Below are positions 15,006 to 35,238 of a stretch of DNA of 64,000 bases, piece after piece. This DNA is from Escherichia coli (GTDB lineage: Bacteria > Pseudomonadota > Gammaproteobacteria > Enterobacterales > Enterobacteriaceae). A program made the translations under genes and the position numbers. Each line of letters begins with the position of its first letter. The stretch's first letter is position 1. Location: the NCBI RefSeq assembly GCF_013315695.1, contig NZ_CP054353.1; one strand, 5' to 3'. The notes below the pieces were generated by a model, which searched no databases, was not told the origin of the DNA, and saw only the letters and a program-made list of their open reading frames with translations.

Positions 15006-15740
15006 ATGTCCAAACTCGATCTAAACGCCCTGAACGAACTGCCAAAGGTAGACCGGATTCTGGCGCTGGCGGAAACTAACGCCCAACTGGAAAAACTGGA
15101 CGCTGAAGGCCGCGTAGCCTGGGCGCTGGATAATCTGCCCGGTGAATATGTACTTTCTTCCAGCTTTGGCATTCAGGCGGCGGTGAGCCTGCATCTGGTG
15201 AATCAGATTCACCCGGATATTCCAGTGATCCTCACCGATACCGGTTATCTGTTCCCGGAAACCTACCGCTTTATTGACGAGTTAACGGACAAACTCAAAC
15301 TCAACCTGAAAGTGTACCGTGCTACCGAAAGCGCTGCCTGGCAGGAAGCGCGCTACGGCAAACTGTGGGAACAGGGCGTTGAAGGTATTGAAAAGTACAA
15401 CGATATCAACAAAGTCGAACCGATGAACCGGGCGCTAAAAGAACTGAACGCGCAAACCTGGTTTGCCGGCCTGCGCCGTGAACAATCCGGCAGTCGTGCC
15501 AATTTACCGGTGCTGGCAATTCAGCGTGGCGTATTTAAAGTGCTGCCGATTATCGACTGGGATAACCGAACTATTTATCAGTACCTGCAAAAACATGGCC
15601 TGAAATATCACCCATTATGGGATGAAGGATATTTATCGGTCGGTGATACCCATACAACCCGTAAATGGGAACCCGGCATGGCGGAAGAAGAAACGCGTTT
15701 CTTTGGCTTAAAAAGAGAATGTGGGTTACACGAAGGGTAA
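15006..15740 (+). CDS. cysH: Phosphoadenosine phosphosulfate (PAPS) reductase
   Basis: 244-aa product [14 protein letters not shown]... ending ...ECGLHEG; the track ORF starting at 14853 is a 5' over-extension through the REP element. Confidence 0.9.
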
Positions 15741-15757
15741 ATATTGCCGGATAAATT

Positions 15758-15796
15758 AAACGCCTCTGTCAGAAATGATGGGGGCGTTTTTATTTT
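15758..15796 (+). terminator. Candidate terminator downstream of cysH
   Basis: AAACGCC...GGCGTTTTTATTTT: short GC stem plus T-run immediately after the cysH stop; the loop is long, so the call is weak. Confidence 0.35.
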
Positions 15797-15906
15797 GCGA
15801 GCAGCATTCCTGATTTTAAACGTGAACGTCGTTGGAAGAATTAACAGGTATAGAATGGCGTTGGGTGCTTGAGGCTGTCTGGCGTTAAGCATTCGCGAGG
15901 TTCCAG

Positions 15907-16008
15907 ATGGACAAAAGCCCCAGGCGATATTTCTATCAACCTGAGGCCAGCGTTCGAACCCAAACAATTCGAATGTTAGTCTCTTCTTTGCAGGGAGGCA
16001 AGACATGC
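15907..16008 (+). CDS. mok-like upstream reading frame, translationally coupled to hok
   Basis: 33-codon ORF ([15 protein letters not shown]...GGKTC) with a GAGG RBS; its TGA stop overlaps the hok ATG (ATGCTGA), the arrangement typical of hok/mok loci. Confidence 0.35.
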
Positions 16009-16157
16009 TGACAAAATATGCCCTTGTGGCAATCATAGTGCTGTGTTTTACAGTACTGGGATTCACGCTGATGGTAGGCGACTCGTTGTGTGAGTTGAGT
16101 ATCAGAGAACGTGGTATGGAGTTTAAGGCGGTTCTCGCTTACGAATCGAAGAAGTAG
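16005..16157 (+). CDS. hokX: Hok/Gef-family type I toxin (50 aa), apparently intact
   Basis: [50 protein letters not shown]: single TM helix followed by the conserved SLCE...AYES motif of Hok/Gef; GGAGG RBS; a GC hairpin (CGCGGGG-GTAAAA-CCCCGCG, 16164-16183) lies just downstream. Symbol by position between cysH and cas3. Confidence 0.7.
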
Positions 16158-16199
16158 CCACCACGCGGGGGTAAAACCCCGCGTACTGAATTGTGATGG

Positions 16200-16351
16200 T
16201 TTGGTCTCCTGCACCCTTTTTTAATTTATATTGTTTATGTGAATATTATGCCTATGTTTATTATTCATATATATTACGGATGAAAATTATTTGATTATTC
16301 ATAATGTAAATATTTTATTGAACGATATATATCACAGATAATTTTTAATAT
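16200..16351 (+). promoter_or_regulatory. AT-rich cas3 upstream/promoter region
   Basis: About 150 bp of very AT-rich DNA immediately upstream of cas3; in K-12 the cas promoters are H-NS silenced (established knowledge, not verified for this sequence). Confidence 0.4.
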
Positions 16352-19051
16352 ATGCGTAAATATCCTTTAAGTTTACTGAAGGATAAAAATATTGTGACTT
16401 TTTTTGATTTCTGGGGAAAAACCCGACGCGGCGAGAAAGACGGGGGCGACGACTATCACCTTCTTTGCTGGCATTCGCTGGATGTAGCCGCGATGGGCTA
16501 TTTAATGGTTAAAAGCAATTGCTTCGGACTGGCTGACTATTTTCGTCAATTAGGTTTCGCTGACACGGAGCTGGCAGCACAATTTTTCGCCTGGCTGCTG
16601 TGCTGGCACGATATTGGAAAATTTGCCCGCTCTTTTCAGCAACTTTACCTGCACCCACAACTCAAGGTTCCGGAAGGCGCAAGAAAGAATTACGAAAAGA
16701 TCTCTCATTCAACGCTGGGCTACTGGTTGTGGAACCATTATTTAAGTGAATGTCAGGAGTTGCTTCCTTCATCTTCACTCTCTCCGCGCAAACTTAAACG
16801 GGTGATGGAGATGTGGATGCCCATGACTACCGGGCATCATGGTCGACCCCCTGAGCGTATGGATGAACTGGATAATTTTCTGCCTGAAGACAAAGGTGCC
16901 GCACGAGATTTTCTCCTTGCAATCAAGGTACTGTTTCCGCTCATAGAGATCCCCACATTCTGGGATGATGACGAGGGCGTTGAACTTATAAAACAACTTT
17001 CCTGGTATATCTCTGCAACCGTCGTACTTGCAGACTGGACGGGATCGTCAACGCGATATTTTCCACGCGTCGCACAGACAATGGATATTGAAGATTACTG
17101 GCAGAAAACTTTAGTTCAGGCTCAAAACGCCTTAACCGTCTTTCCTCCAAAAGCAGAAAGCGCGCCTTTCACCGGAATTAATACGCTGTTTCCTTTTATT
17201 GAGAATCCGACACCGCTACAGCAAAAGGTGCTGGATCTGGATATCAGCCAGCCGGGACCACAGTTATTTATTCTGGAGGATGTAACCGGCGCAGGTAAAA
17301 CAGAAGCGGCGCTTATCCTGGCGCACAGGTTGATGGCTGCGGGGAAAGCGCAGGGTTTGTTTTTTGGCCTGCCAACAATGGCAACGGCCAATGCCATGTA
17401 CGATCGACTGGTCAAAACCTGGCTTGCTTTCTATTCGCCAGAGTCCCGCCCCAGCCTGGTGCTGGCACACAGTGCCCGAACATTAATGGACCGCTTTAAT
17501 GAATCACTCTGGTCCGGTGATTTAGTCGGGTCAGAAGAACCGGATGAACAAACGTTCAGTCAGGGATGTGCGGCCTGGTTTGCCGACAGTAACAAGAAGG
17601 CGCTACTGGCTGAAATTGGCGTCGGCACGCTGGATCAGGCGATGATGGCTGTGATGCCGTTCAAACATAATAATCTGCGGCTTCTGGGACTGAGTAACAA
17701 AATCCTGCTGGCTGATGAGATCCATGCCTGTGACGCTTACATGTCATGCATTCTTGAAGGGCTGATCGAGCGGCAGGCGCGTGGCGGAAACAGCGTCATT
17801 TTGCTTTCTGCCACGTTATCTCAACAGCAGCGCGACAAACTCGTTGCTGCCTTTGCGCGTGGTATAGAGGGCCAGCAAGAAGCTCCGTTCCTGGAAAAGG
17901 ATGATTACCCCTGGCTGACGCACGTTACGAAATCCGATGTGCATTCACACCGGGTAGCGACGCGCAAAGACGTTGAGCGCAGCGTGAGTGTGGGTTGGCT
18001 TCATAGCGAACAAGAGTGTATTGCGCGTATCGAATCGGCGGTAAGTCAGGGGAAATGTATCGCCTGGATCCGAAATTCTGTCGATGACGCCATCCAGGTT
18101 CATCGTCAGTTACTTGCCCGCGGCGTCATTCCTGCTTCCAGCCTTTCACTTTTTCATAGCCGCTTTGCTTTTAGCGATCGCCAGCGAATTGAAACGGAGA
18201 CGCTGGCACGCTTTGGTAAAGAAGACTGTTCACAGCGTGCCGGAAAAGTCCTCATTTGTACTCAAGTCCTGGAGCAGAGCGTTGACTGCGACCTGGACGA
18301 AATGATTTCCGACCTTGCCCCTGTTGATTTACTGATCCAGCGAGCAGGGCGATTACAGCGACATATCCGCGATATGAATGGCCAGTTAAAGCGTGACGGT
18401 AAAGACGAGCGTCACCCTCCTGAATTGCTGATTCTGGCCCCCGTCTGGGACGACTCTCCGGGTGACGAATGGTTTGGCAGTGCCATGCGTAACAGTGCAT
18501 TTGTCTATCCCGATCATGGGCGAATCTGGCTGACGCAGCGTGTGCTGCGTGAGCAAGGTGCTATTCAGATGCCACACTCAGCCCGGCTTCTGATTGAATC
18601 AGTCTACGGTGAGGACGTAGTAATGCCGGAAGGGTTTGCCCGCAGCGAGCAGGAGCAAGTGGGCAAATATTACTGCGATCGCGCAATGGCTAAAAAGTTT
18701 GTACTGAACTTCAGGCCCGGCTATGCCGCCAATATCAACGATTACCTCCCGGAAAAACTGTCGACACGTCTGGCTGAAGAGTCTGTTTCCCTGTGGCTGG
18801 CTACCTGTATTGACGGTGTGGTGAAGCCTTATGCCACAGGTGCACACGCATGGGAAATGAGCGTTGTCAGAGTGCGCCGAAGCTGGTGGAAAAAACATCG
18901 GGATGAGTTTGCTTTACTGGAAGGGGATGCGTTCAGGCAGTGGTGCGTTGAACAGCGGCATGATCCGGAGATGGCAAACGTGATTTTAGTCACCGATGAC
19001 GAAAGTTGTGGGTATTCGGCTACGGAGGGATTGATTGGCAAGGTTGGTTGA
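16352..19051 (+). CDS. cas3: Type I-E Cas3 HD-nuclease/helicase
   Basis: 899-aa ORF with an N-terminal HD region (HSLDVAA...HDIGKF), Walker A GAGKTEAA and DExH box LLADEIHACD; start could instead be the GTG 14 codons downstream. Confidence 0.9.
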   Translation: MRKYPLSLLKDKNIVTFFDFWGKTRRGEKDGGDDYHLLCWHSLDVAAMGYLMVKSNCFGLADYFRQLGFADTELAAQFFAWLLCWHDIGKFARSFQQLYLHPQLKVPEGARKNYEKISHSTLGYWLWNHYLSECQELLPSSSLSPRKLKRVMEMWMPMTTGHHGRPPERMDELDNFLPEDKGAARDFLLAIKVLFPLIEIPTFWDDDEGVELIKQLSWYISATVVLADWTGSSTRYFPRVAQTMDIEDYWQKTLVQAQNALTVFPPKAESAPFTGINTLFPFIENPTPLQQKVLDLDISQPGPQLFILEDVTGAGKTEAALILAHRLMAAGKAQGLFFGLPTMATANAMYDRLVKTWLAFYSPESRPSLVLAHSARTLMDRFNESLWSGDLVGSEEPDEQTFSQGCAAWFADSNKKALLAEIGVGTLDQAMMAVMPFKHNNLRLLGLSNKILLADEIHACDAYMSCILEGLIERQARGGNSVILLSATLSQQQRDKLVAAFARGIEGQQEAPFLEKDDYPWLTHVTKSDVHSHRVATRKDVERSVSVGWLHSEQECIARIESAVSQGKCIAWIRNSVDDAIQVHRQLLARGVIPASSLSLFHSRFAFSDRQRIETETLARFGKEDCSQRAGKVLICTQVLEQSVDCDLDEMISDLAPVDLLIQRAGRLQRHIRDMNGQLKRDGKDERHPPELLILAPVWDDSPGDEWFGSAMRNSAFVYPDHGRIWLTQRVLREQGAIQMPHSARLLIESVYGEDVVMPEGFARSEQEQVGKYYCDRAMAKKFVLNFRPGYAANINDYLPEKLSTRLAEESVSLWLATCIDGVVKPYATGAHAWEMSVVRVRRSWWKKHRDEFALLEGDAFRQWCVEQRHDPEMANVILVTDDESCGYSATEGLIGKVG

Positions 19052-19140
19052 GATGTCTGCGACAGGATTCTCTGAATAGTTGATACACAAAAAAGGATGG
19101 ACAACCGACCAGGGATGGTCTTTTTTACGAGAGGATGCGT

Positions 19141-20703
19141 ATGAACTCGTTTTCACTTCTGACAACCCCGTGGTTGCCTGTTCGTTTCAAAGACGGAACG
19201 ACAGGCAAGCTGGCATCAGTCGATCTGGCTGATGAGAATGTTGTCGATATCGCCGCACCGCGAGCAGATTTACAAGGTGCGGCCTGGCAGTTTTTGCTGG
19301 GACTACTACAAACCAGCTTCGCGCCAAAAGATCATCGTCGTTGGGATGATATCTGGGAAGACGGACTGGAAGCTGAAAAGCTACGAGAAGCATTGCTGTC
19401 TTTAGAACATGCTTTCCAGTTTGGGCCTGATTCATCTTCATTTATGCAGGATTTTGAGGCGCTCACGGGAGATAAAGTTCCGGTCGCTTCGCTACTGCCT
19501 GAGATTCCCGGCTCTCAAACGACGAAGTTTAATAAAGACCATTTTATCAAGCGGGGTGTAACGGAATATCTGTGCCCCCATTGCTTAGCATTGGCCTTGT
19601 TCTCTTTACAGTTGAATGCACCCGCGGGCGGCAAAGGCTATCGCACCGGTTTACGCGGCGGTGGGCCGATGACGACTCTCATTGAATTACAGGAATATCA
19701 GGGCAATCAACAAACACCCTTGTGGCGCAAACTGTGGCTCAACGTGATGCCGCAGGATGAAGCCGACTTACCGCTACCCAAAAAATTTGACGATCTGATT
19801 TTCCCCTGGCTAGGCCCGACGCGTACCAGCGAACTGGCCGGTGCGGTGGTAACCCATGATCAGGTCAATAAACTCCAGGCGTACTGGGGAATGCCGCGGC
19901 GTATACGTATTGATTTTAATACCACGACAGTCGGCAACTGCGATATTTGCGACGAGCAGAACGACGCGCTCCTGAGCCTGATGACGACCAAAAATTATGG
20001 TGCCAATTATGCCATGTGGCAGCATCCCTTAACGCCTTACCGTGTACCACTTAAAGAGGGTGGCGAGTTTTACTCCGTTAAACCACAACCGGGCGGTTTA
20101 ATCTGGCGCGACTGGTTAGGCCTTATCGAAACGGGTAAATCAGAAAACAATACGGAACTTCCCGCGCTGGTGGTGAAACTCTTTAATGCCAGCAGTCTGA
20201 AACAGGCAAAAGTGGGCCTATGGGGATTTGGTTATGATTTTGACAACATGAAAGCGCGCTGTTGGTACGAACACCATTTCCCGCTACTGCTCAATAAAAA
20301 AGAAGGCCAGATACCGAAGCTGCGGCTGGCTGCGCAAACGGCTTCACGGATTCTGAGTCTGTTACGGAGTGCATTGAAAGAAGCATGGTTCTCCGATCCA
20401 AAAGGTGCAAGGGGTGATTTCAGTTTTGTGGATATCGACTTCTGGAACAAAACTCAGCATCGCTTCCTGAGGTTAGTGCGCCAAATTGAAGAAGGTCAGG
20501 ATGCGGATGAATTACTCGGCAAATGGCAAAAGGAAATTTGGTTATTCGCGCGTCAGGATTTTGACGAGCGTGTATTCACTAATCCTTATGAGCCCGTTGA
20601 TTTGAAACGCGTCATGACCGCGCGCAAGAAATATTTTACAACATCGGCGGAGAAGCAAAGTGCTAAAGCCGCCAGGGAGAAAAAGCAGGAGGCTGCTGAA
20701 TGA
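19141..20703 (+). CDS. casA: Cascade large subunit Cse1/CasA
   Basis: First gene after cas3 in a canonical I-E order; about 520 aa; start chosen at the second ATG, 6 nt after a GAGAGG RBS (the track ORF starts 2 codons earlier). Confidence 0.85.
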   Translation: MNSFSLLTTPWLPVRFKDGTTGKLASVDLADENVVDIAAPRADLQGAAWQFLLGLLQTSFAPKDHRRWDDIWEDGLEAEKLREALLSLEHAFQFGPDSSSFMQDFEALTGDKVPVASLLPEIPGSQTTKFNKDHFIKRGVTEYLCPHCLALALFSLQLNAPAGGKGYRTGLRGGGPMTTLIELQEYQGNQQTPLWRKLWLNVMPQDEADLPLPKKFDDLIFPWLGPTRTSELAGAVVTHDQVNKLQAYWGMPRRIRIDFNTTTVGNCDICDEQNDALLSLMTTKNYGANYAMWQHPLTPYRVPLKEGGEFYSVKPQPGGLIWRDWLGLIETGKSENNTELPALVVKLFNASSLKQAKVGLWGFGYDFDNMKARCWYEHHFPLLLNKKEGQIPKLRLAAQTASRILSLLRSALKEAWFSDPKGARGDFSFVDIDFWNKTQHRFLRLVRQIEEGQDADELLGKWQKEIWLFARQDFDERVFTNPYEPVDLKRVMTARKKYFTTSAEKQSAKAAREKKQEAAE

Positions 20704-21236
20704 GTATTGTAAAAGAGGAGCACAAAGCCACGCTGCGTAAATGGCACGAAGAGTTGCAGGAAAAACGCGGCAATCGTGCCAGTCTGCGGCGTAGCACAAC
20801 GGTTAATGATGTTTGTCTGTCAGAAGGTTTTCGTTCTCTGCTGATGCAGACCCACACGTTGTGGAAAATTGAATCACAGGAGTGGCGTTTTACCGCACTG
20901 GCGCTGGTTGCCGCCGTTGCCGCCAATGTAAAAGCCATTGATGAACGGCAGCCTTTTGCCGCGCAGTTGGCGGCGGTAATGTCTGAGGGGCGTTTTACTC
21001 GCCTGTCGGCAGTCAAAACGCCGGATGAATTACTGCGCCAGTTACGTCGCGCGGTCAAATTATTAAATGGTTCCGTCAATCTTATCTCTTTGGCAGACGA
21101 TATTTTCCGCTGGTGCCAGGAGAGTGACGACCTGCTCAATCATCACCGCCGCCAGCAGCGGCCAACAGAATTTATCCGTATCCGCTGGGCGCTGGAATAT
21201 TACCAGGCTGGCGACGCCGATAACGAACAAAATTAA
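20700..21236 (+). CDS. casB: Cascade small subunit Cse2/CasB
   Basis: 178-aa basic protein; ATGA start/stop overlap with casA. Confidence 0.85.
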   Translation: MSIVKEEHKATLRKWHEELQEKRGNRASLRRSTTVNDVCLSEGFRSLLMQTHTLWKIESQEWRFTALALVAAVAANVKAIDERQPFAAQLAAVMSEGRFTRLSAVKTPDELLRQLRRAVKLLNGSVNLISLADDIFRWCQESDDLLNHHRRQQRPTEFIRIRWALEYYQAGDADNEQN

Positions 21237-21250
21237 TAAAGGACTATCTC

Positions 21251-22306
21251 ATGACGACATTTATTCAGCTTCATTTGTTAACCGCTTACCCTGCTGCCAA
21301 CCTTAACCGTGATGACACCGGTGCGCCAAAAACTGTGGTACTGGGTGGAGCAACGCGTCTGCGCGTTTCCTCGCAAAGTCTGAAACGTGCGTGGCGCACT
21401 TCTGCACTTTTTGAACAGGCGCTGGCGGGCCATATTGGTATTCGTAGTGGGCGTATCGCGCGCGAGGCAGCAACTATCATGATTGAGAAAGGAATCGAAG
21501 AAAAAAAAGCCATCGAATGGGCGGCAGATATTGCCGATTATCTTGGTAAAGCCAAAAAAGACAAAAAACCAAAAGATCCGCTCACTAACGCTGAAACTGA
21601 ACAGCTCGTCCATATCAGCCCGGCAGAATTTGACGCCGTAAAAGCGCTGGCCCATCAACTGGCAGAAGAAAAGCGCGCGCCAAAAGAGGACGATCTCGCT
21701 TTGTTACGTAAAGATCGTATGGCGGTAGATATCGCCATGTTTGGTCGTATGCTGGCGAATAAACCCGAGTTTAATGTTGAAGCCGCCTGTCAGGTCGCGC
21801 ACGCGTTTGGTGTCAGTGAAACGATTGTCGAAGATGATTTTTTCACCGCCGTTGATGATTTGCGCCAGGCCTCTGAAGATGCTGGTGCAGGGCATCTTGG
21901 TGAAACTGGATTTGGTTCTGCGCTGTTCTACACCTATATCTGCATTGATAAAGATCTGCTGGTCGAAAACCTCGGCGGTGACGAAGCATTAGCTAATCAG
22001 ACCCTGCGCGCCTTTACGGAAGCAGCGTTTAAAGTTTCCCCAACCGGTAAACAAAACAGCTTTGCCAGCCGTGCCTACGCCTCCTGGGCGCTGGCAGAAA
22101 AAGGCACCGAACAACCGCGTTCTCTGGCGGCGGCTTTCTATGAACCCATTAATGGCACACGTCAGTTAGATGTGGCGGTGCAGCGTATTACAACGCTTCG
22201 CGAAAACATGAATACGGTTTACGAACAGAAGACCGAATGCGCAAGTTTTGACGTGATGAACAAACAGGGAAGCATGAAGGACGTGCTGGACTTTATCTGC
22301 GCGTAA
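21251..22306 (+). CDS. casC: Cascade backbone Cas7e/CasC
   Basis: 351-aa ORF MTTFIQLHLLTAYPAANLNRDDTGAPK..., typical Cas7e N-terminus. Confidence 0.9.
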   Translation: MTTFIQLHLLTAYPAANLNRDDTGAPKTVVLGGATRLRVSSQSLKRAWRTSALFEQALAGHIGIRSGRIAREAATIMIEKGIEEKKAIEWAADIADYLGKAKKDKKPKDPLTNAETEQLVHISPAEFDAVKALAHQLAEEKRAPKEDDLALLRKDRMAVDIAMFGRMLANKPEFNVEAACQVAHAFGVSETIVEDDFFTAVDDLRQASEDAGAGHLGETGFGSALFYTYICIDKDLLVENLGGDEALANQTLRAFTEAAFKVSPTGKQNSFASRAYASWALAEKGTEQPRSLAAAFYEPINGTRQLDVAVQRITTLRENMNTVYEQKTECASFDVMNKQGSMKDVLDFICA

Positions 22307-22316
22307 GGGGCGGCTT

Positions 22317-23063
22317 ATGAGCCAATATCTGATTTTTCAGCTTCATGGGCCAATGGCATCCTGGGGCGTTGATGCACCCGGTGAGGTGCGTCATACCCAT
22401 GAACTGCCTTCGCGTTCAGCATTGCTGGGGCTGCTGGCTGCCGGGGTAGGGATACGGCGTGATGACACCGAATGCTTAAACGCGTTTAATCGCCACTATT
22501 CACTGGTGGTTTGCGCCAGCCGTAACCCGCGCTGGGCACGGGATTATCACACGGTCCAGATGCCAAAAGAGGTGCGTAAAGCGCGTTATTTCAGCCGTCG
22601 CGAAGAGTTGAGCGACCCTGATCTTCTAAGCGCGATTATCTCCCGGCGCGACTACTACACCGATGCCTGGTGGATGGTGGCCGTGGCAACAACAGCTGAT
22701 GCGCCTTACAGCCTCGAACAGTTGCAGGAAGGTTTACGCCATCCGGCTTTTCCGCTTTATCTGGGGCGAAAAAGCCATCCGCTGGCATTACCCCTTGCGC
22801 CGTTACTGCTTGAAGGTAACGCGTCTGATGCCTTACGTAACGCATACCAACAGTATCAGGATCGTTTCCACGAACTGAAAGTCTCACTCCCGAAACTTCA
22901 GGATGAATGCTGGTGGGAAGGGGAGCACGATGGCCTGGTCTCGAGCAAAATATTACGCCGCCGGGATGTTCCTTTAAATCGTCAGCAGTGGCTGTTTGGG
23001 GAACGCACCGTCAATCAGGGGCCGTGGCTCAGCAAGGAGGAACCATGTACCTCTCAAGAATAA
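22317..23063 (+). CDS. casD: Cascade Cas5e/CasD
   Basis: 248-aa ORF MSQYLIFQLHGPMASWG..., Cas5e signature. Confidence 0.9.
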   Translation: MSQYLIFQLHGPMASWGVDAPGEVRHTHELPSRSALLGLLAAGVGIRRDDTECLNAFNRHYSLVVCASRNPRWARDYHTVQMPKEVRKARYFSRREELSDPDLLSAIISRRDYYTDAWWMVAVATTADAPYSLEQLQEGLRHPAFPLYLGRKSHPLALPLAPLLLEGNASDALRNAYQQYQDRFHELKVSLPKLQDECWWEGEHDGLVSSKILRRRDVPLNRQQWLFGERTVNQGPWLSKEEPCTSQE

Positions 23064-23691
23064 CCTTACATACCGGTCAGCTTTCGCCTGCGCAGTTGCT
23101 GCATTTGGTGGATCGCGGTGAATATGTGATGCATCAGTGGCTGTGGGATCTTTTTCCTGGCGGCAAAGAAAGGCAATTTCTTTATCGTCGGGAAGAACTC
23201 CAGGGCGCGTTTCGCTTTTTTGTCCTGTCGCAGGAACGCCCGGCGGAAAGTGAAACGTTCACCATCGAATGCCGGTCATTTGCGCCTGAACTGCATACCG
23301 GACAATCCCTTTGTTTCAACCTGCGGGCGAATCCAACAGTCTGTAAAGCGGGTAAGCGCCACGATCTGCTGATGGAGGCGAAACGGCAGGTGAGGGGGCA
23401 GGCGGAAGGAAGAAATGTCTGGTTGCATCAACAACAGGCGGCGCTGGACTGGCTGGCAGCGCAGGGGGAGAGAAGCGGTTTTACACTGCTGGATACCTCG
23501 GTCGATGCCTACCGACAACAGCAACTGCGGCGGGAAAACTCCCGGCAACTGATCCAGTTCAGTAGCGTGGATTATACGGGGATGCTTACGGTCACCGATC
23601 CTGGGTTATTTCTGCAACGTCTGAGCCAGGGGTATGGCAAAAGCCGGGCGTTCGGTTGTGGTCTGATGCTGATCAAACCTGGAGCAGAGGC

Positions 23692-23695
<4 letters not shown>
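23045..23695 (+). CDS. casE: Cas6e/CasE crRNA endoribonuclease
   Basis: Start at ATG 23045 after an AGGAGG RBS (MYLSRITLHTGQ...); overlaps the casD 3' end by 19 nt; the track ORF from 22907 is a 5' over-extension. Confidence 0.85.
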
Positions 23696-24905
<1,210 letters not shown>

Positions 24906-25001
24906 GTTACCCGTTCTTTAAAAATAAGGAAAAGTTTGAATTTAGTTGGTAGATTGTTGTTGTGGAATAAAATTGTTTAAAAACAGATACGTATGCTTAG
25001 T
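24906..25001 (+). promoter_or_regulatory. CRISPR leader
   Basis: 96-bp AT-rich sequence between the cas2 stop and the first repeat. Confidence 0.6.
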
Positions 25002-25213
25002 GTGTTCCCCGCGCCAGCGGGGATAAACCGGCTGGGTACTAGCCAGGGTGAAAGGAAGTCACGTGTTCCCCGCGCCAGCGGGGATAAACCGTCGACAATG
25101 GATAAGTTGACTTCAGGTCTGGGGAGTTCCCCGCGCTAGCGGGAATAAACCGTGCAGTACGCCTGATGACAAACCAGGCATCGGGAGTTCCCCCGCGTCA
25201 GCGGGGAACTCCC
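25002..25213 (+). CRISPR. Type I-E CRISPR array: 4 repeats (29 bp) and 3 spacers (32 bp)
   Basis: Repeats at 25002, 25063, 25124 and 25185 (61-bp period): GTGTTCCCCGCGCCAGCGGGGATAAACCG twice, then GAGTTCCCCGCGCTAGCGGGAATAAACCG, then a degenerate terminal repeat GAGTTCCCCCGCGTCAGCGGGGAACTCCC. Spacers: gctgggtactagccagggtgaaaggaagtcac; tcgacaatggataagttgacttcaggtctggg; tgcagtacgcctgatgacaaaccaggcatcgg. Confidence 0.9.
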
Positions 25214-25233
25214 AGCTCCCATTTTCAAACCCA

Positions 25234-34098: not shown

Positions 34099-35238
34099 AT
34101 GAGCGCGGGAAGCCCAAAATTCACCGTTCGCCGCATTGCGGCTTTGTCACTGGTTTCGCTATGGCTGGCAGGCTGTTCTGACACTTCAAATCCACCGGCC
34201 CCGGTCAGCTCCGTTAATGGCAATGCGCCTGCAAATACCAATTCTGGTATGTTGATTACGCCGCCGCCGAAAATGGGGACGACGTCTACAGCGCAGCAAC
34301 CGCAAATTCAGCCGGTACAGCAGCCACAAATTCAGGCCACTCAACAACCGCAAATCCAGCCGGTGCAGCCAGTAGCTCAGCAGCCGGTACAGATGGAAAA
34401 CGGACGCATCGTCTATAACCGTCAGTATGGGAACATTCCGAAAGGCAGTTATAGCGGCAGTACCTATACAGTGAAAAAAGGCGACACACTTTTCTATATC
34501 GCCTGGATTACTGGCAACGATTTCCGTGACCTTGCTCAGCGCAACAATATTCAGGCACCATACGCGCTGAACGTCGGTCAGACCTTACAGGTGGGGAATG
34601 CTTCCGGTACGCCAATCACTGGCGGAAATGCCATTACCCAGGCCGACGCAGCAGAGCAAGGAGTTGTGATCAAGCCTGCACAAAATTCCACCGTTGCTGT
34701 TGCTTCGCAACCGACAATTACGTATTCTGAGTCTTCGGGTGAACAGAGTGCTAACAAAATGTTGCCGAACAACAAGCCAACTGCGACCACGGTCACAGCG
34801 CCTGTAACGGTACCAACAGCAAGCACAACCGAGCCGACTGTCAGCAGTACATCAACCAGTACGCCTATCTCCACCTGGCGCTGGCCGACTGAGGGCAAAG
34901 TGATCGAAACCTTTGGCGCTTCTGAGGGGGGCAACAAGGGGATTGATATCGCAGGCAGCAAAGGACAGGCAATTATCGCGACTGCAGATGGCCGCGTTGT
35001 TTATGCCGGTAACGCGCTGCGCGGCTACGGTAATCTGATTATCATCAAACATAATGATGATTACCTGAGTGCCTACGCCCATAACGACACAATGCTGGTC
35101 CGGGAACAACAAGAAGTGAAGGCGGGGCAAAAAATAGCAACCATGGGTAGCACCGGAACCAGTTCAACACGCTTGCATTTTGAAATTCGTTACAAGGGGA
35201 AATCCGTAAACCCGCTGCGTTATTTGCCGCAGCGATAA
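34099..35238 (+). CDS. nlpD: Murein hydrolase activator lipoprotein NlpD (LysM plus M23 domains)
   Basis: 379-aa ORF with lipoprotein signal (LAGCS), a Q/P-rich repeat region, a LysM segment and a C-terminal M23 peptidase-like domain. Confidence 0.9.
34285..34395 (+). repeat. In-frame tandem repeat inside nlpD encoding QQPQIQP(V/A) units
   Basis: About 3.5 near-identical 24-nt units (cagcaaccgcaaattcagccggta...) visible directly in the sequence. Confidence 0.5.
34700..34735 (+). promoter_or_regulatory. Major rpoS promoter located inside nlpD
   Basis: TTGCTT-N17-TATTCT (34700-34705 and 34723-34728) places the transcription start about 566 nt upstream of the rpoS ATG, matching the known long rpoS 5' UTR. 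Confidence 0.6.

Follow-up and report, generated by a model that had tools for sequence, protein, structure and literature searches.

Knowledge of how Escherichia coli regulates its type I-E cas genes has come nearly all from the cas-E2 locus of K-12, where H-NS, LeuO, CRP and BaeR act at Pcas8e. Here we describe the cas3-casA region of another E. coli genome (assembly GCF_013315695.1, contig NZ_CP054353.1), analyzed within a stretch of 64,000 nucleotides (nt) that we call the window and from whose first letter all positions are counted. Two elements are of particular concern, a very AT-rich tract that precedes cas3, and a small hairpin followed directly by six T residues (T6) that lies between cas3 and casA.

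Several related systems provide points of comparison. In K-12 there are independent Pcas3 and Pcas8e promoters as well as anti-Pcas, and H-NS silencing is relieved by LeuO (Pul 2010 and Westra 2010, as summarized in PMC10011333 and PMC3497052). E. coli has two cas-E variants, with E2, the K-12 type, found chiefly in phylogroup A, and E1 invariably tied to an intact hok/sok locus and to a specific cysH-cas3 intergenic segment (Almendros et al. 2014, PMC3903273). As summarized in PMC8039139, the cas-STY region of Salmonella Typhi comprises five transcription units in which cas3 is independent and H-NS-silenced (Medina-Aparicio 2011, 2017). This cas3 is described as divergent from, or complementary to, the cascade operon with a 357-nt gap, which is another arrangement in another cas lineage, and because cas3 is so described we do not treat S. 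Typhi as an analogue of the present locus. Salmonella Enteritidis belongs to the contiguous cas-STM group, and deletion of its cas3 raised expression of cse1 20-fold, cas6 9-fold and cse2 7-fold, with all other genes of the cas operon also up (PMC7168661); by analogy, this result fits transcription that would enter upstream of cas3. Finally, Liu et al. and Shmakov et al. (2023 preprints) have described creR-type regulatory mini-arrays situated between cas3 and cas8e. According to the latter, a short cas3-cas8 junction is typical of type I-E, with only about 20% of loci having an interval of >200 bp and the typical locus leaving no room for an extra RNA gene.

Identity and organization of the locus

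On the evidence of the sequence, we give about even credence to a reading in which cas3 is driven from the AT-rich tract, probably under H-NS-type silencing, and casA through cas2 are expressed mainly by read-through, with the hairpin and its U-run constituting at most a weak attenuator. Specifically, a strong terminator after cysH would stop transcription arriving from cysJIH, the hok mRNA would end near 16216, and the 195-bp tract of about 20% G+C (GC) that reaches to GTG 16394 would hold the cas3 promoter or promoters and would be a natural target of H-NS-type silencing. The 89-nt cas3-casA spacer would not be a second promoter region. Its 3’ half would be a conserved casA leader made up of the small hairpin, U6 and a ribosome-binding site, with the hairpin plus U6 functioning at most as a weak, leaky intrinsic terminator or attenuator, and read-through from the cas3 promoter region would account for most transcription of casABCDE-cas1-cas2. 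The locus would thus be one eight-gene operon with an internal attenuator or leader, and not two independently promoted units.

As judged by its sequence, the locus is the E. coli cas-E1 variant and not the K-12 cas-E2 variant. Cas3 of this locus is only 29% identical to K-12 Cas3, the cas3 sequence is E1-specific (positions 16434-16453 match the reverse complement of the published cas3E1-R primer from PMC3903273), and cysH and cas3 are separated by an intact hok/sok locus. E. coli MS 21-1 and several other strains have chromosomal sequence with 100% identity to region 15900-19300, of which at least 80% is carried by 2,425 of the 5,426 complete E. coli genomes (~45%). Annotation of the identical record by the Prokaryotic Genome Annotation Pipeline (PGAP) gives the plus-strand order cysJ-cysI-cysH, a Hok/Gef gene, cas3, casA, casB, cas7e, cas5e, cas6e, cas1e and cas2e, with iap downstream of cas2e on the minus strand. 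The type I-E assignment follows from the Cse1/CasA protein (TIGR02547 at 607 bits, NCBIfam), the order cas3-casA-B-7-5-6-1-2 and an adjoining array of 29-nt type I-E CRISPR repeats.

The locus shares with K-12 the order cas3-casA...cas2-CRISPR, its site between cysH and iap, a CRISPR leader with its own promoter, and AT-rich DNA suited to H-NS that is tied to cas transcription. However, there are several important differences. In K-12 the region with Pcas8e and anti-Pcas between cas3 and casA spans 414 bp at 29.5% GC, whereas the spacer observed here is 89 nt at 45% GC. K-12 also has no AT-rich tract upstream of cas3 (minimum GC 0.39), which this locus does have, and K-12 retains only a sokX remnant of the hok/sok locus that is intact in E1. 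The long AT-rich cas3-casA region with Pcas8e, anti-Pcas and H-NS/LeuO sites that characterizes the K-12 architecture is absent from this locus, which is a member of the short-junction class.

An earlier note on this DNA, made from the letters alone, had pointed to about 150 bp of very AT-rich DNA ahead of cas3, to an 89-bp cas3-casA gap with a GACCA-GGGA-TGGTC-T6 hairpin in it, and to tight packing of casA through cas2. All of these features are present (Table 1). The tract measures about 150 nt when counted from ATG 16352 and about 195 nt when counted from GTG 16394, the gap runs from the end of the cas3 stop codon at 19051 to the casA ATG at 19141, the hairpin with its T6 occupies 19107-19126, and the successive junctions from casA to cas2 are -4, +14, +10, -19, -4 and -4 nt.

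Table 1. Coordinates of features from the cysH terminator to cas2e, given as positions in the 64-kb window.
Feature	Coordinates	Strand	Description
cysH intrinsic terminator	15758..15798	+	14-bp stem (6 GC pairs), then T-rich tail
hok/sok type I toxin-antitoxin locus, intact	15863..16216	+	Rfam RF01794; PGAP Hok/Gef; NCBIfam HokA
Very AT-rich non-coding tract	16199..16393	+	21.5% GC over 195 nt; candidate cas3 promoter or H-NS-type silencing region
Best sigma-70-like match of the tract, TTAATT-17-TATTAT	16221..16249	+	Score 8.9, 99.97th percentile; consensus match only; predicted start ~16256
Proximal sigma-70-like match, TTTATT-17-GATAAT	16314..16342	+	Score 7.5, 99.9th percentile; predicted start ~16349
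cas3 (HD nuclease and helicase)	16394..19051	+	885 amino acids from conserved GTG 16394
Variable 5’ half of spacer	19052..19096	+	Diversity 0.059, near neutral
Conserved 3’ half of spacer, read as casA leader module	19097..19140	+	Diversity 0.026, near that of cas3 codon positions 1 and 2
Hairpin GACCA-GGGA-TGGTC	19107..19120	+	5-bp stem with 3 GC pairs, 4-nt loop
T6 run	19121..19126	+	Zero offset from hairpin
casA ribosome-binding site GAGAGGA	19129..19135	+	5 nt before ATG 19141; invariant in Escherichia and Intestinirhabdus alba
casA-casB-cas7e-cas5e-cas6e-cas1e-cas2e	19141..24905	+	Tightly packed or overlapping; PGAP order

Two further observations concern the wider locus. The CRISPR array at 25002-25214 is tiny, with four repeats (two perfect, then two that are 90% and 66% identical) and three spacers, and its leader contains a strong promoter match, TTGGTA-16-TAAAAT at 24946-24973 (score 10.5). 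Among the sequences compared, a cas3-casA region 96% identical to E. coli E1 is on a 7-kb contig (JAIJJM010000114.1, L010) from a metagenome-assembled genome that bears the label Collinsella sp., probably through a binning error or contamination.

AT-rich DNA upstream of cas3

The tract that precedes cas3 is the most AT-rich DNA of the window and is as AT-rich as is expected of H-NS-silenced regions. GC per 100 nt is 0.23 at 16200-16299, 0.18 at 16250-16349 and 0.21 at 16300-16399. The lowest-GC 195-nt stretch, at 16216-16410, has 18.5% GC relative to 33.8% for the next-lowest stretch and 52.6% for the window overall, with only 0.04% of all 195-nt segments being equally AT-rich. When sigma-70-like sequences were ranked by a position-weight-matrix scan, with percentiles taken relative to the window, the tract contained 18 matches at or above the 99th percentile, which is a density of 92 per kb versus a background of 10 per kb (~9-fold). 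By a simpler promoter scan, neither the AT tract nor the cas3-casA spacer contained a site agreeing with 9 or more of the 12 positions.

Conservation is uneven along the tract, as measured among 33 distinct Escherichia E1 sequences. Overall diversity is 0.063, a near-neutral value relative to 0.074 for third codon positions of cas3, and it falls to about 0.03 over the last ~50 nt. The distal half is variable, with 39 nt from 16229 deleted in Escherichia sp. L002, and the proximal sigma-70-like match sits in the better-conserved proximal part. Diffuse AT-richness with a conserved gene-proximal core is as would be expected of a promoter region silenced by a nucleoid protein. A scan for the H-NS nucleation motif (TCGATAAATT, at most two mismatches) gave a single match in the tract, with two mismatches, at 16312-16321, which is no enrichment; H-NS binding does not require a nucleation motif of the TCGATAAATT type. 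An Rfam search of 15600-19400 (E <= 1) returned nothing in the AT tract or in the spacer, the only matches being the hok/sok family and two sub-threshold chance matches.

The tract is bounded on its upstream side by two elements. The first is the intrinsic terminator after cysH, which folds at -20 kcal/mol (15758-15789, z = -5.1) and is matched by 0 of 200 shuffled sequences, and which would insulate the cas3 region from cysJIH transcription. The second is the hok/sok locus, for which the Rfam RF01794 match at 15863-16020 (111 bits, plus strand) is in the hok-sense orientation and the hok coding sequence lies at 16005-16157 (PGAP Hok/Gef protein; NCBIfam HokA, E = 9e-16). A -10-like TAGAAT at 15851-15856 predicts a hok start near 15863, and the hok mRNA would span GGGTGCTTGAGGC to GGTCTCCTGCACCC-T6 if its ends are correctly placed. 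The GGTCTCCTGCACCC-T6 sequence at about 16197-16216 is complementary to the 5’ end of the hok mRNA, as in other hok mRNAs, and the AT tract begins exactly at this predicted mRNA end (~16216 region).

Immediately 3’ of the hok coding sequence is a GC hairpin, CGCGGGGG-TAAAAC-CCCCGCG (16163-16184, -17.7 kcal/mol). This hairpin is a target of insertion sequences at ~16167 (loci L106 and L003). An IS4-family element, annotated as IS421 in L106, is present at the site in E. coli ECCNB12-2 and two other strains, and E. albertii carries a ~1.3-kb insertion in the opposite orientation at the same site. In both cases the insertion splits hok from the AT tract.

An AT-rich tract before cas3 is also found in Salmonella, Citrobacter, Klebsiella grimontii and Phytobacter despite a differing upstream neighbor, and every short-junction relative with usable upstream sequence shows one 5’ of cas3. 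Because of the boundaries set by the terminator and hok, the density of sigma-70-like matches and the retention of the tract in relatives, a promoter region belonging to cas3 itself is well supported, and we conclude that cas3 very probably has one. Silencing of the tract by H-NS is plausible from its composition.

Where the tract ends depends on the start codon of cas3. PGAP calls a product of 899 amino acids from ATG 16352, with Cas3 domains well above the NCBIfam cut-offs (TIGR01596, cas3_HD, 87.6 bits with a cut-off of 43; TIGR01587, cas3_core, 214.8 bits with a cut-off of 102). However, GTG 16394, with AAGGA 9 nt ahead of it, is at the place where homologues from nine species all begin, and the equivalent of ATG 16352 is out of frame in Escherichia sp. 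L002 owing to a 1-nt indel. Since the homologues begin at the GTG and the upstream ATG is out of frame in L002, the true start is probably GTG 16394, which would make the PGAP product 14 amino acids too long.

The cas3-casA spacer and its hairpin

A quite different picture of the locus would be that of K-12, with two separate H-NS-silenced units in which the hairpin and T6 end cas3 and a cascade promoter lies within the spacer or the 3’ end of cas3. In favor of this arrangement, which we consider unlikely, are the independent Pcas3 and Pcas8e of K-12, the reported independence and H-NS silencing of cas3 in S. Typhi (as given in PMC8039139), and the hairpin itself, which is a conserved module and a rare combination with its T6 in the correct orientation after cas3. 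But this is the E1 and not the E2 variant, and its short, 45%-GC spacer is without a good sigma-70 match. Across the spacer and the final 500 nt of cas3, the plus strand scores at most 4.4 for sigma-70 (~99.2nd percentile), versus 7.5-8.9 in the AT tract and 10.5 in the CRISPR leader. The last 300 nt of cas3 have a third-position diversity of 0.074, which is the gene-wide value (first and second codon positions, 0.020), so there is no sign of a conserved element embedded in the 3’ end of the gene.

The spacer also varies in length at a position that bears on this alternative. Most E. coli alleles have an extra 8-nt copy of GATGGAAN after 19095 that makes the spacer 97 nt long, and such an indel would alter the spacing of any promoter that spans it. 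The 89-nt allele of this locus is the rarer one, with nearly all sampled E. coli loci being 97 nt. The presence or absence of GATGGAAN at 19095/19096 makes a tandem GATGGA repeat.

Other candidate features of the spacer were examined and set aside. A minus-strand, anti-Pcas-like site, TTGTCC (19104)-17-AACTAT (19076), scores 6.8 but is not a conserved feature because the 8-nt indel splits its spacer in most alleles. The same indel shifts the frame of a 15-codon open reading frame from ATG 19097 to TGA 19144, which is not coding. The spacer holds no creR-type repeat or mini-array, as no CRISPR-repeat-like sequence was found on either strand of 19012-19180 at up to nine mismatches; this also leaves unsupported the idea of the hairpin module as a degenerate forward CRISPR repeat, which had been considered because Klebsiella forms share GCGCCAG..GGGAT.

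The hairpin with its U-run is located 55 nt past the cas3 stop codon and 14 nt ahead of the casA start codon. It has the minimal form of an intrinsic terminator, a GC stem-loop followed by a U-run, at the floor of the criteria for one. Its stability is not comparable with that of proven terminators, as the bare hairpin has an energy of -5.6 kcal/mol versus -19.5 for the cysH terminator and -12 for the only other site in the window with a stem directly followed by T6. In a 29-nt context the energy is -7.0 kcal/mol (z = -1.57), a value equalled by 13 of 200 shuffles. Most alleles are weaker still. The commonest E. coli allele, GACCT (58 of 82 sampled loci), loses the loop-closing pair to leave a 4-bp stem of -4.6 kcal/mol, the GATCA allele pairs only by a U-G wobble (-3.0 kcal/mol), and the GACCA allele of this locus is the strongest but a minority.

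Such numbers raise the question of chance. A generic terminator scan gave 21 terminator-like sites in 9.8 kb, mostly within genes, versus 11.9 expected from shuffles, and T6 placed directly after a stem of 5 bp or more occurs at only two sites across both strands of the window versus 0.81 +/- 0.84 in shuffles. The other of these sites (34480-34503, minus strand, 9-bp stem) is antisense within a 379-amino-acid plus-strand open reading frame (34099-35238). Although the modest stability, the unexceptional isolated fold and this lone antisense counterpart could be taken to mean that the hairpin and T6 are a chance feature without function, we regard that as very improbable, given the reduced diversity of the 3’ half of the spacer (0.026 versus 0.059-0.074), compensatory stem changes across genera, and an element that holds its place beside casA across junctions of 89-500 nt.

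The last two points come from a comparison of junctions. These were taken from 12 genome loci found with a Cas3 query and from metagenome loci found by a DNA-pattern scan for the casA N-terminus (91 stretches matched), of which 97 loci gave both a cas3 stop and a casA start, with 35 distinct spacers. The shortest junctions, 0-11 nt, occur in Salmonella diarizonae, Citrobacter youngae, K. grimontii, Phytobacter ursingii and several metagenome loci, where the casA ribosome-binding site GGAGG lies within the last cas3 codons. The 89-nt form is found in this locus, an Escherichia sp., E. albertii and a few others, and the 97-nt form in most E. coli loci. Junctions of 151-251 nt occur in K. indica (151), Intestinirhabdus alba (176) and two metagenome loci, and junctions of 450-500 nt in K. 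spallanzanii, three metagenome loci and a rare E. coli form. The latter is represented by strain ECNB21-M121 (L107, 261-710), with a 450-nt junction, and is found in 7 of the 5,426 complete genomes.

The Salmonella, Citrobacter, Klebsiella and Phytobacter loci with 0-11 nt junctions are the closest protein relatives outside Escherichia (Cas3 ~70% and CasA ~72-76% identical), and they share with this locus both the short-junction class and the AT-rich tract upstream of cas3. They differ in having the casA ribosome-binding site inside cas3 and no hairpin, whereas Escherichia has 89-97 nt with its own ribosome-binding site, the hairpin and T6. A junction of 0-11 nt in these relatives is a further point against a cascade promoter at this position.

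In every locus with a junction of at least 89 nt, a hairpin with an invariant CCA...GG core lies 15-25 nt 5’ of the casA start. It keeps this place when the junction grows to 450-500 nt, and it thus follows casA and not the cas3 stop. The stem covaries across genera: counted outward from the loop, the fourth pair is A-T, G-T, G-C or T-A and the fifth changes between G-C and C-G, with a plus-strand G-U wobble tolerated in four lineages and stems of 6-7 bp in Klebsiella-type loci. Within the subset with 4-nt loops, 86.7% of cells are paired versus 79.6% in shuffles (with 9 of 500 shuffles as high), covariation scores 0.311 versus 0.134 (4 of 500), and slid registers are 11-47% paired. Based on its conserved place, the covariation of its stem and the low diversity of the 3’ half, the hairpin is a real, selected element as far as sequence comparison can tell, and because it stays 15-25 nt from casA even in 450-500-nt spacers it looks like part of the casA leader.

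The U-run is less general. All sampled short-form alleles of Escherichia keep the T6 unchanged, and the hairpin is followed by TTTTCT in the E. coli long form, by GTTTTT in I. alba and by a T-rich run in L059, but the U-run is absent (CATCAG) in Klebsiella-type loci. Termination therefore cannot be the role that these hairpins share, since the Klebsiella-type loci keep the hairpin with covariation but without the U-run. About 225-250 nt before casA, the E. coli long form also has TTGAGT-17-TATTTT, a strong match to a promoter on the plus strand (score 10.7), and with this match upstream of it the long-form hairpin would be inside the casA transcript. The limited distribution of the U-run, the weak common alleles and this placement within the casA transcript all disfavor the hairpin as a cas3 terminator, as do, for the two-unit arrangement, its 4-5-bp stem of -3 to -5.6 kcal/mol and its position on the casA side in long forms.

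These same observations could be taken further to say that the hairpin and U-run do not terminate at all, and that they form a post-transcriptional element of the casA leader affecting stability, processing or translation, with cas3 through cas2 again being one operon. Tolerance of the G-U wobble on the plus strand is in keeping with this, as is the location of the element between a conserved small upstream open reading frame and casA in long forms. A minimum-energy fold of a 106-nt region, which does not use the hairpin at 19107-19120, points the same way in that it pairs the U-run with GAGAGGA. However, the fold of this region is no better than that of shuffled sequences (z = -0.62), the U-run and ribosome-binding site are both invariant and so provide no covariation to back their pairing, and T6 is invariant in short-form Escherichia with a T-rich run also in I. 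alba and L059. We see a purely post-transcriptional role as unlikely. The 106-nt fold also has a long-range helix that competes with the hairpin, GGUUGGUUG (19042-19050, at the end of cas3) with CAACCGACC (19100-19108), which was rejected as a conserved anti-terminator because L002, L003, L077 and L107 alter the 5’ strand (to GGTTGATTG or GGTTGAGTG) without compensation.

The long forms have additional features between cas3 and the hairpin. In these forms cas3 is directly followed by a strong GC hairpin together with a creR-type mini-array or type I-E repeat in reverse orientation, with reverse repeats present in L009, L077, L089, L059, L102 (a shorter junction) and L107, and degenerate in K-12. 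In the K-12 locus (L105, 2640-3053, minus strand), CGGTTTATCCCTACTTAAGTAGGGAAGG located ~40 nt after cas3 is a degenerate reverse CRISPR repeat with its stem swapped for another palindrome, in agreement with the mini-array reported at the E. coli locus by Shmakov et al. In L107 a divergent promoter match faces the mini-array. The creR mini-array loci, which include the rare E. coli E1 form and Klebsiella-like loci, thus have at the same junction a reverse repeat and then the same hairpin module before casA, whereas the present locus has no repeat-like sequence and a spacer too short to fit one. The short spacer is not a simple deletion of the E. coli long form, as ~4 nt at its 5’ end and its last 45 nt align but the middle ~40 nt have no counterpart.

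Between the mini-array and casA, long forms also contain a small open reading frame that has a good ribosome-binding site and ends ~10-20 nt before the hairpin. In the Klebsiella-like loci L009, L050, L089 and L059 it has 32 codons (MEEKPNRYKRLFCRLMIRLGNKLSVSFQLSVR; -152 to -50 from the casA ATG), with equal length in the four loci and third-position-biased substitutions, and in Escherichia-like long forms it has 46-49 codons (L107, -184 to -43; L077, -196 to -46). This reading frame could code for a leader peptide or be a CreT-like cargo gene.

Finally, AT-rich DNA changes its place with junction length. Eight loci with junctions of at most 89 nt and usable upstream sequence have a minimum 150-nt GC of 0.18-0.29 before cas3, versus 0.30-0.50 for junctions of at least 151 nt, with the longest junctions being AT-rich inside the junction instead (K-12 junction minimum, 0.20). 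An either/or pattern, with AT-rich DNA upstream of cas3 or inside the junction, is only suggestive from these values.

Transcription of the locus and its significance

Several points weigh against a single operon fed from upstream of cas3. Promoters that are activator-dependent or not of the sigma-70 type would escape the scan used here, as might weak ones, and the relation of junction length to AT-rich DNA upstream is drawn from a small number of loci that are related phylogenetically. The module of hairpin, T6 and ribosome-binding site is under purifying selection and hairpin plus T6 is rare in the window, so termination there may be real and even substantial. In addition, cas3 is an independent unit in K-12 and, by the report in PMC8039139, in S. 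Typhi. If transcripts were attenuated after cas3, there would also be more message for Cas3 than for Cascade, which is the opposite of the protein stoichiometry, and for this reason a casA promoter that went undetected would make biological sense. The literature that we searched contained no transcript, transcription-start, 3’-end or H-NS binding data for E1 strains, and no transcription-start, H-NS or transcript data for cas-STM Salmonella (PMC5394155 covers only K-12).

The earlier note had fitted this locus to the K-12 model, with cas3 as a separately promoted unit and the hairpin marking its boundary with a separately promoted cascade unit. The first part of that proposal, a promoter region for cas3 itself, is upheld by the sequence. 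The second part is not supported: in an E1 locus whose 89-nt, 45%-GC spacer scores no higher than 4.4, the fit to the K-12 model is not borne out, and a weak hairpin that loses its loop-closing pair in most E. coli alleles, that travels with casA, and that has no place in relatives with 0-11 nt junctions gives little reason to be seen as a boundary between units. A parallel to the hairpin and its U-run is offered by the weak intrinsic terminators and attenuators found within operons, which likewise consist of a stem-loop and a direct U-run between co-oriented genes. The hairpin observed here differs from these in its 4-5-bp stem of -3 to -5.6 kcal/mol and in that other genera keep the hairpin but not the U-run. 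A more speculative step, which we put forward only with considerable doubt, would be that the hairpin and U-run form a conserved cis-acting RNA element of the casA leader through which Cascade expression in this family of type I-E loci is set after initiation, by attenuation or translational control, with the 89/97-nt form being its minimal version.

The existence of two cas-E variants, the linkage of E1 to hok/sok, the distinction between short and long cas3-cas8e junctions and the mini-arrays in the long ones are already published. In the literature searched there was no description of the conserved hairpin in the casA leader, nor of the different place of the AT-rich region, in the junction in K-12 but upstream of cas3 in E1, and these would be small refinements. 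The point is a modest one of gene organization, and appears in line with the known short cas3-cas8e junctions. Nevertheless, ~45% of complete E. coli genomes have the E1 arrangement, which is without the K-12 control region between cas3 and casA and has AT-rich DNA upstream of cas3 instead. If E1 is indeed a single operon, then the K-12 rules on switching Cascade apart from Cas3, and on the ratio of Cas3 to Cascade, would not be transferable to most cas-bearing E. coli, which would bear on predictions of native CRISPR activity and on the repurposing of endogenous systems.

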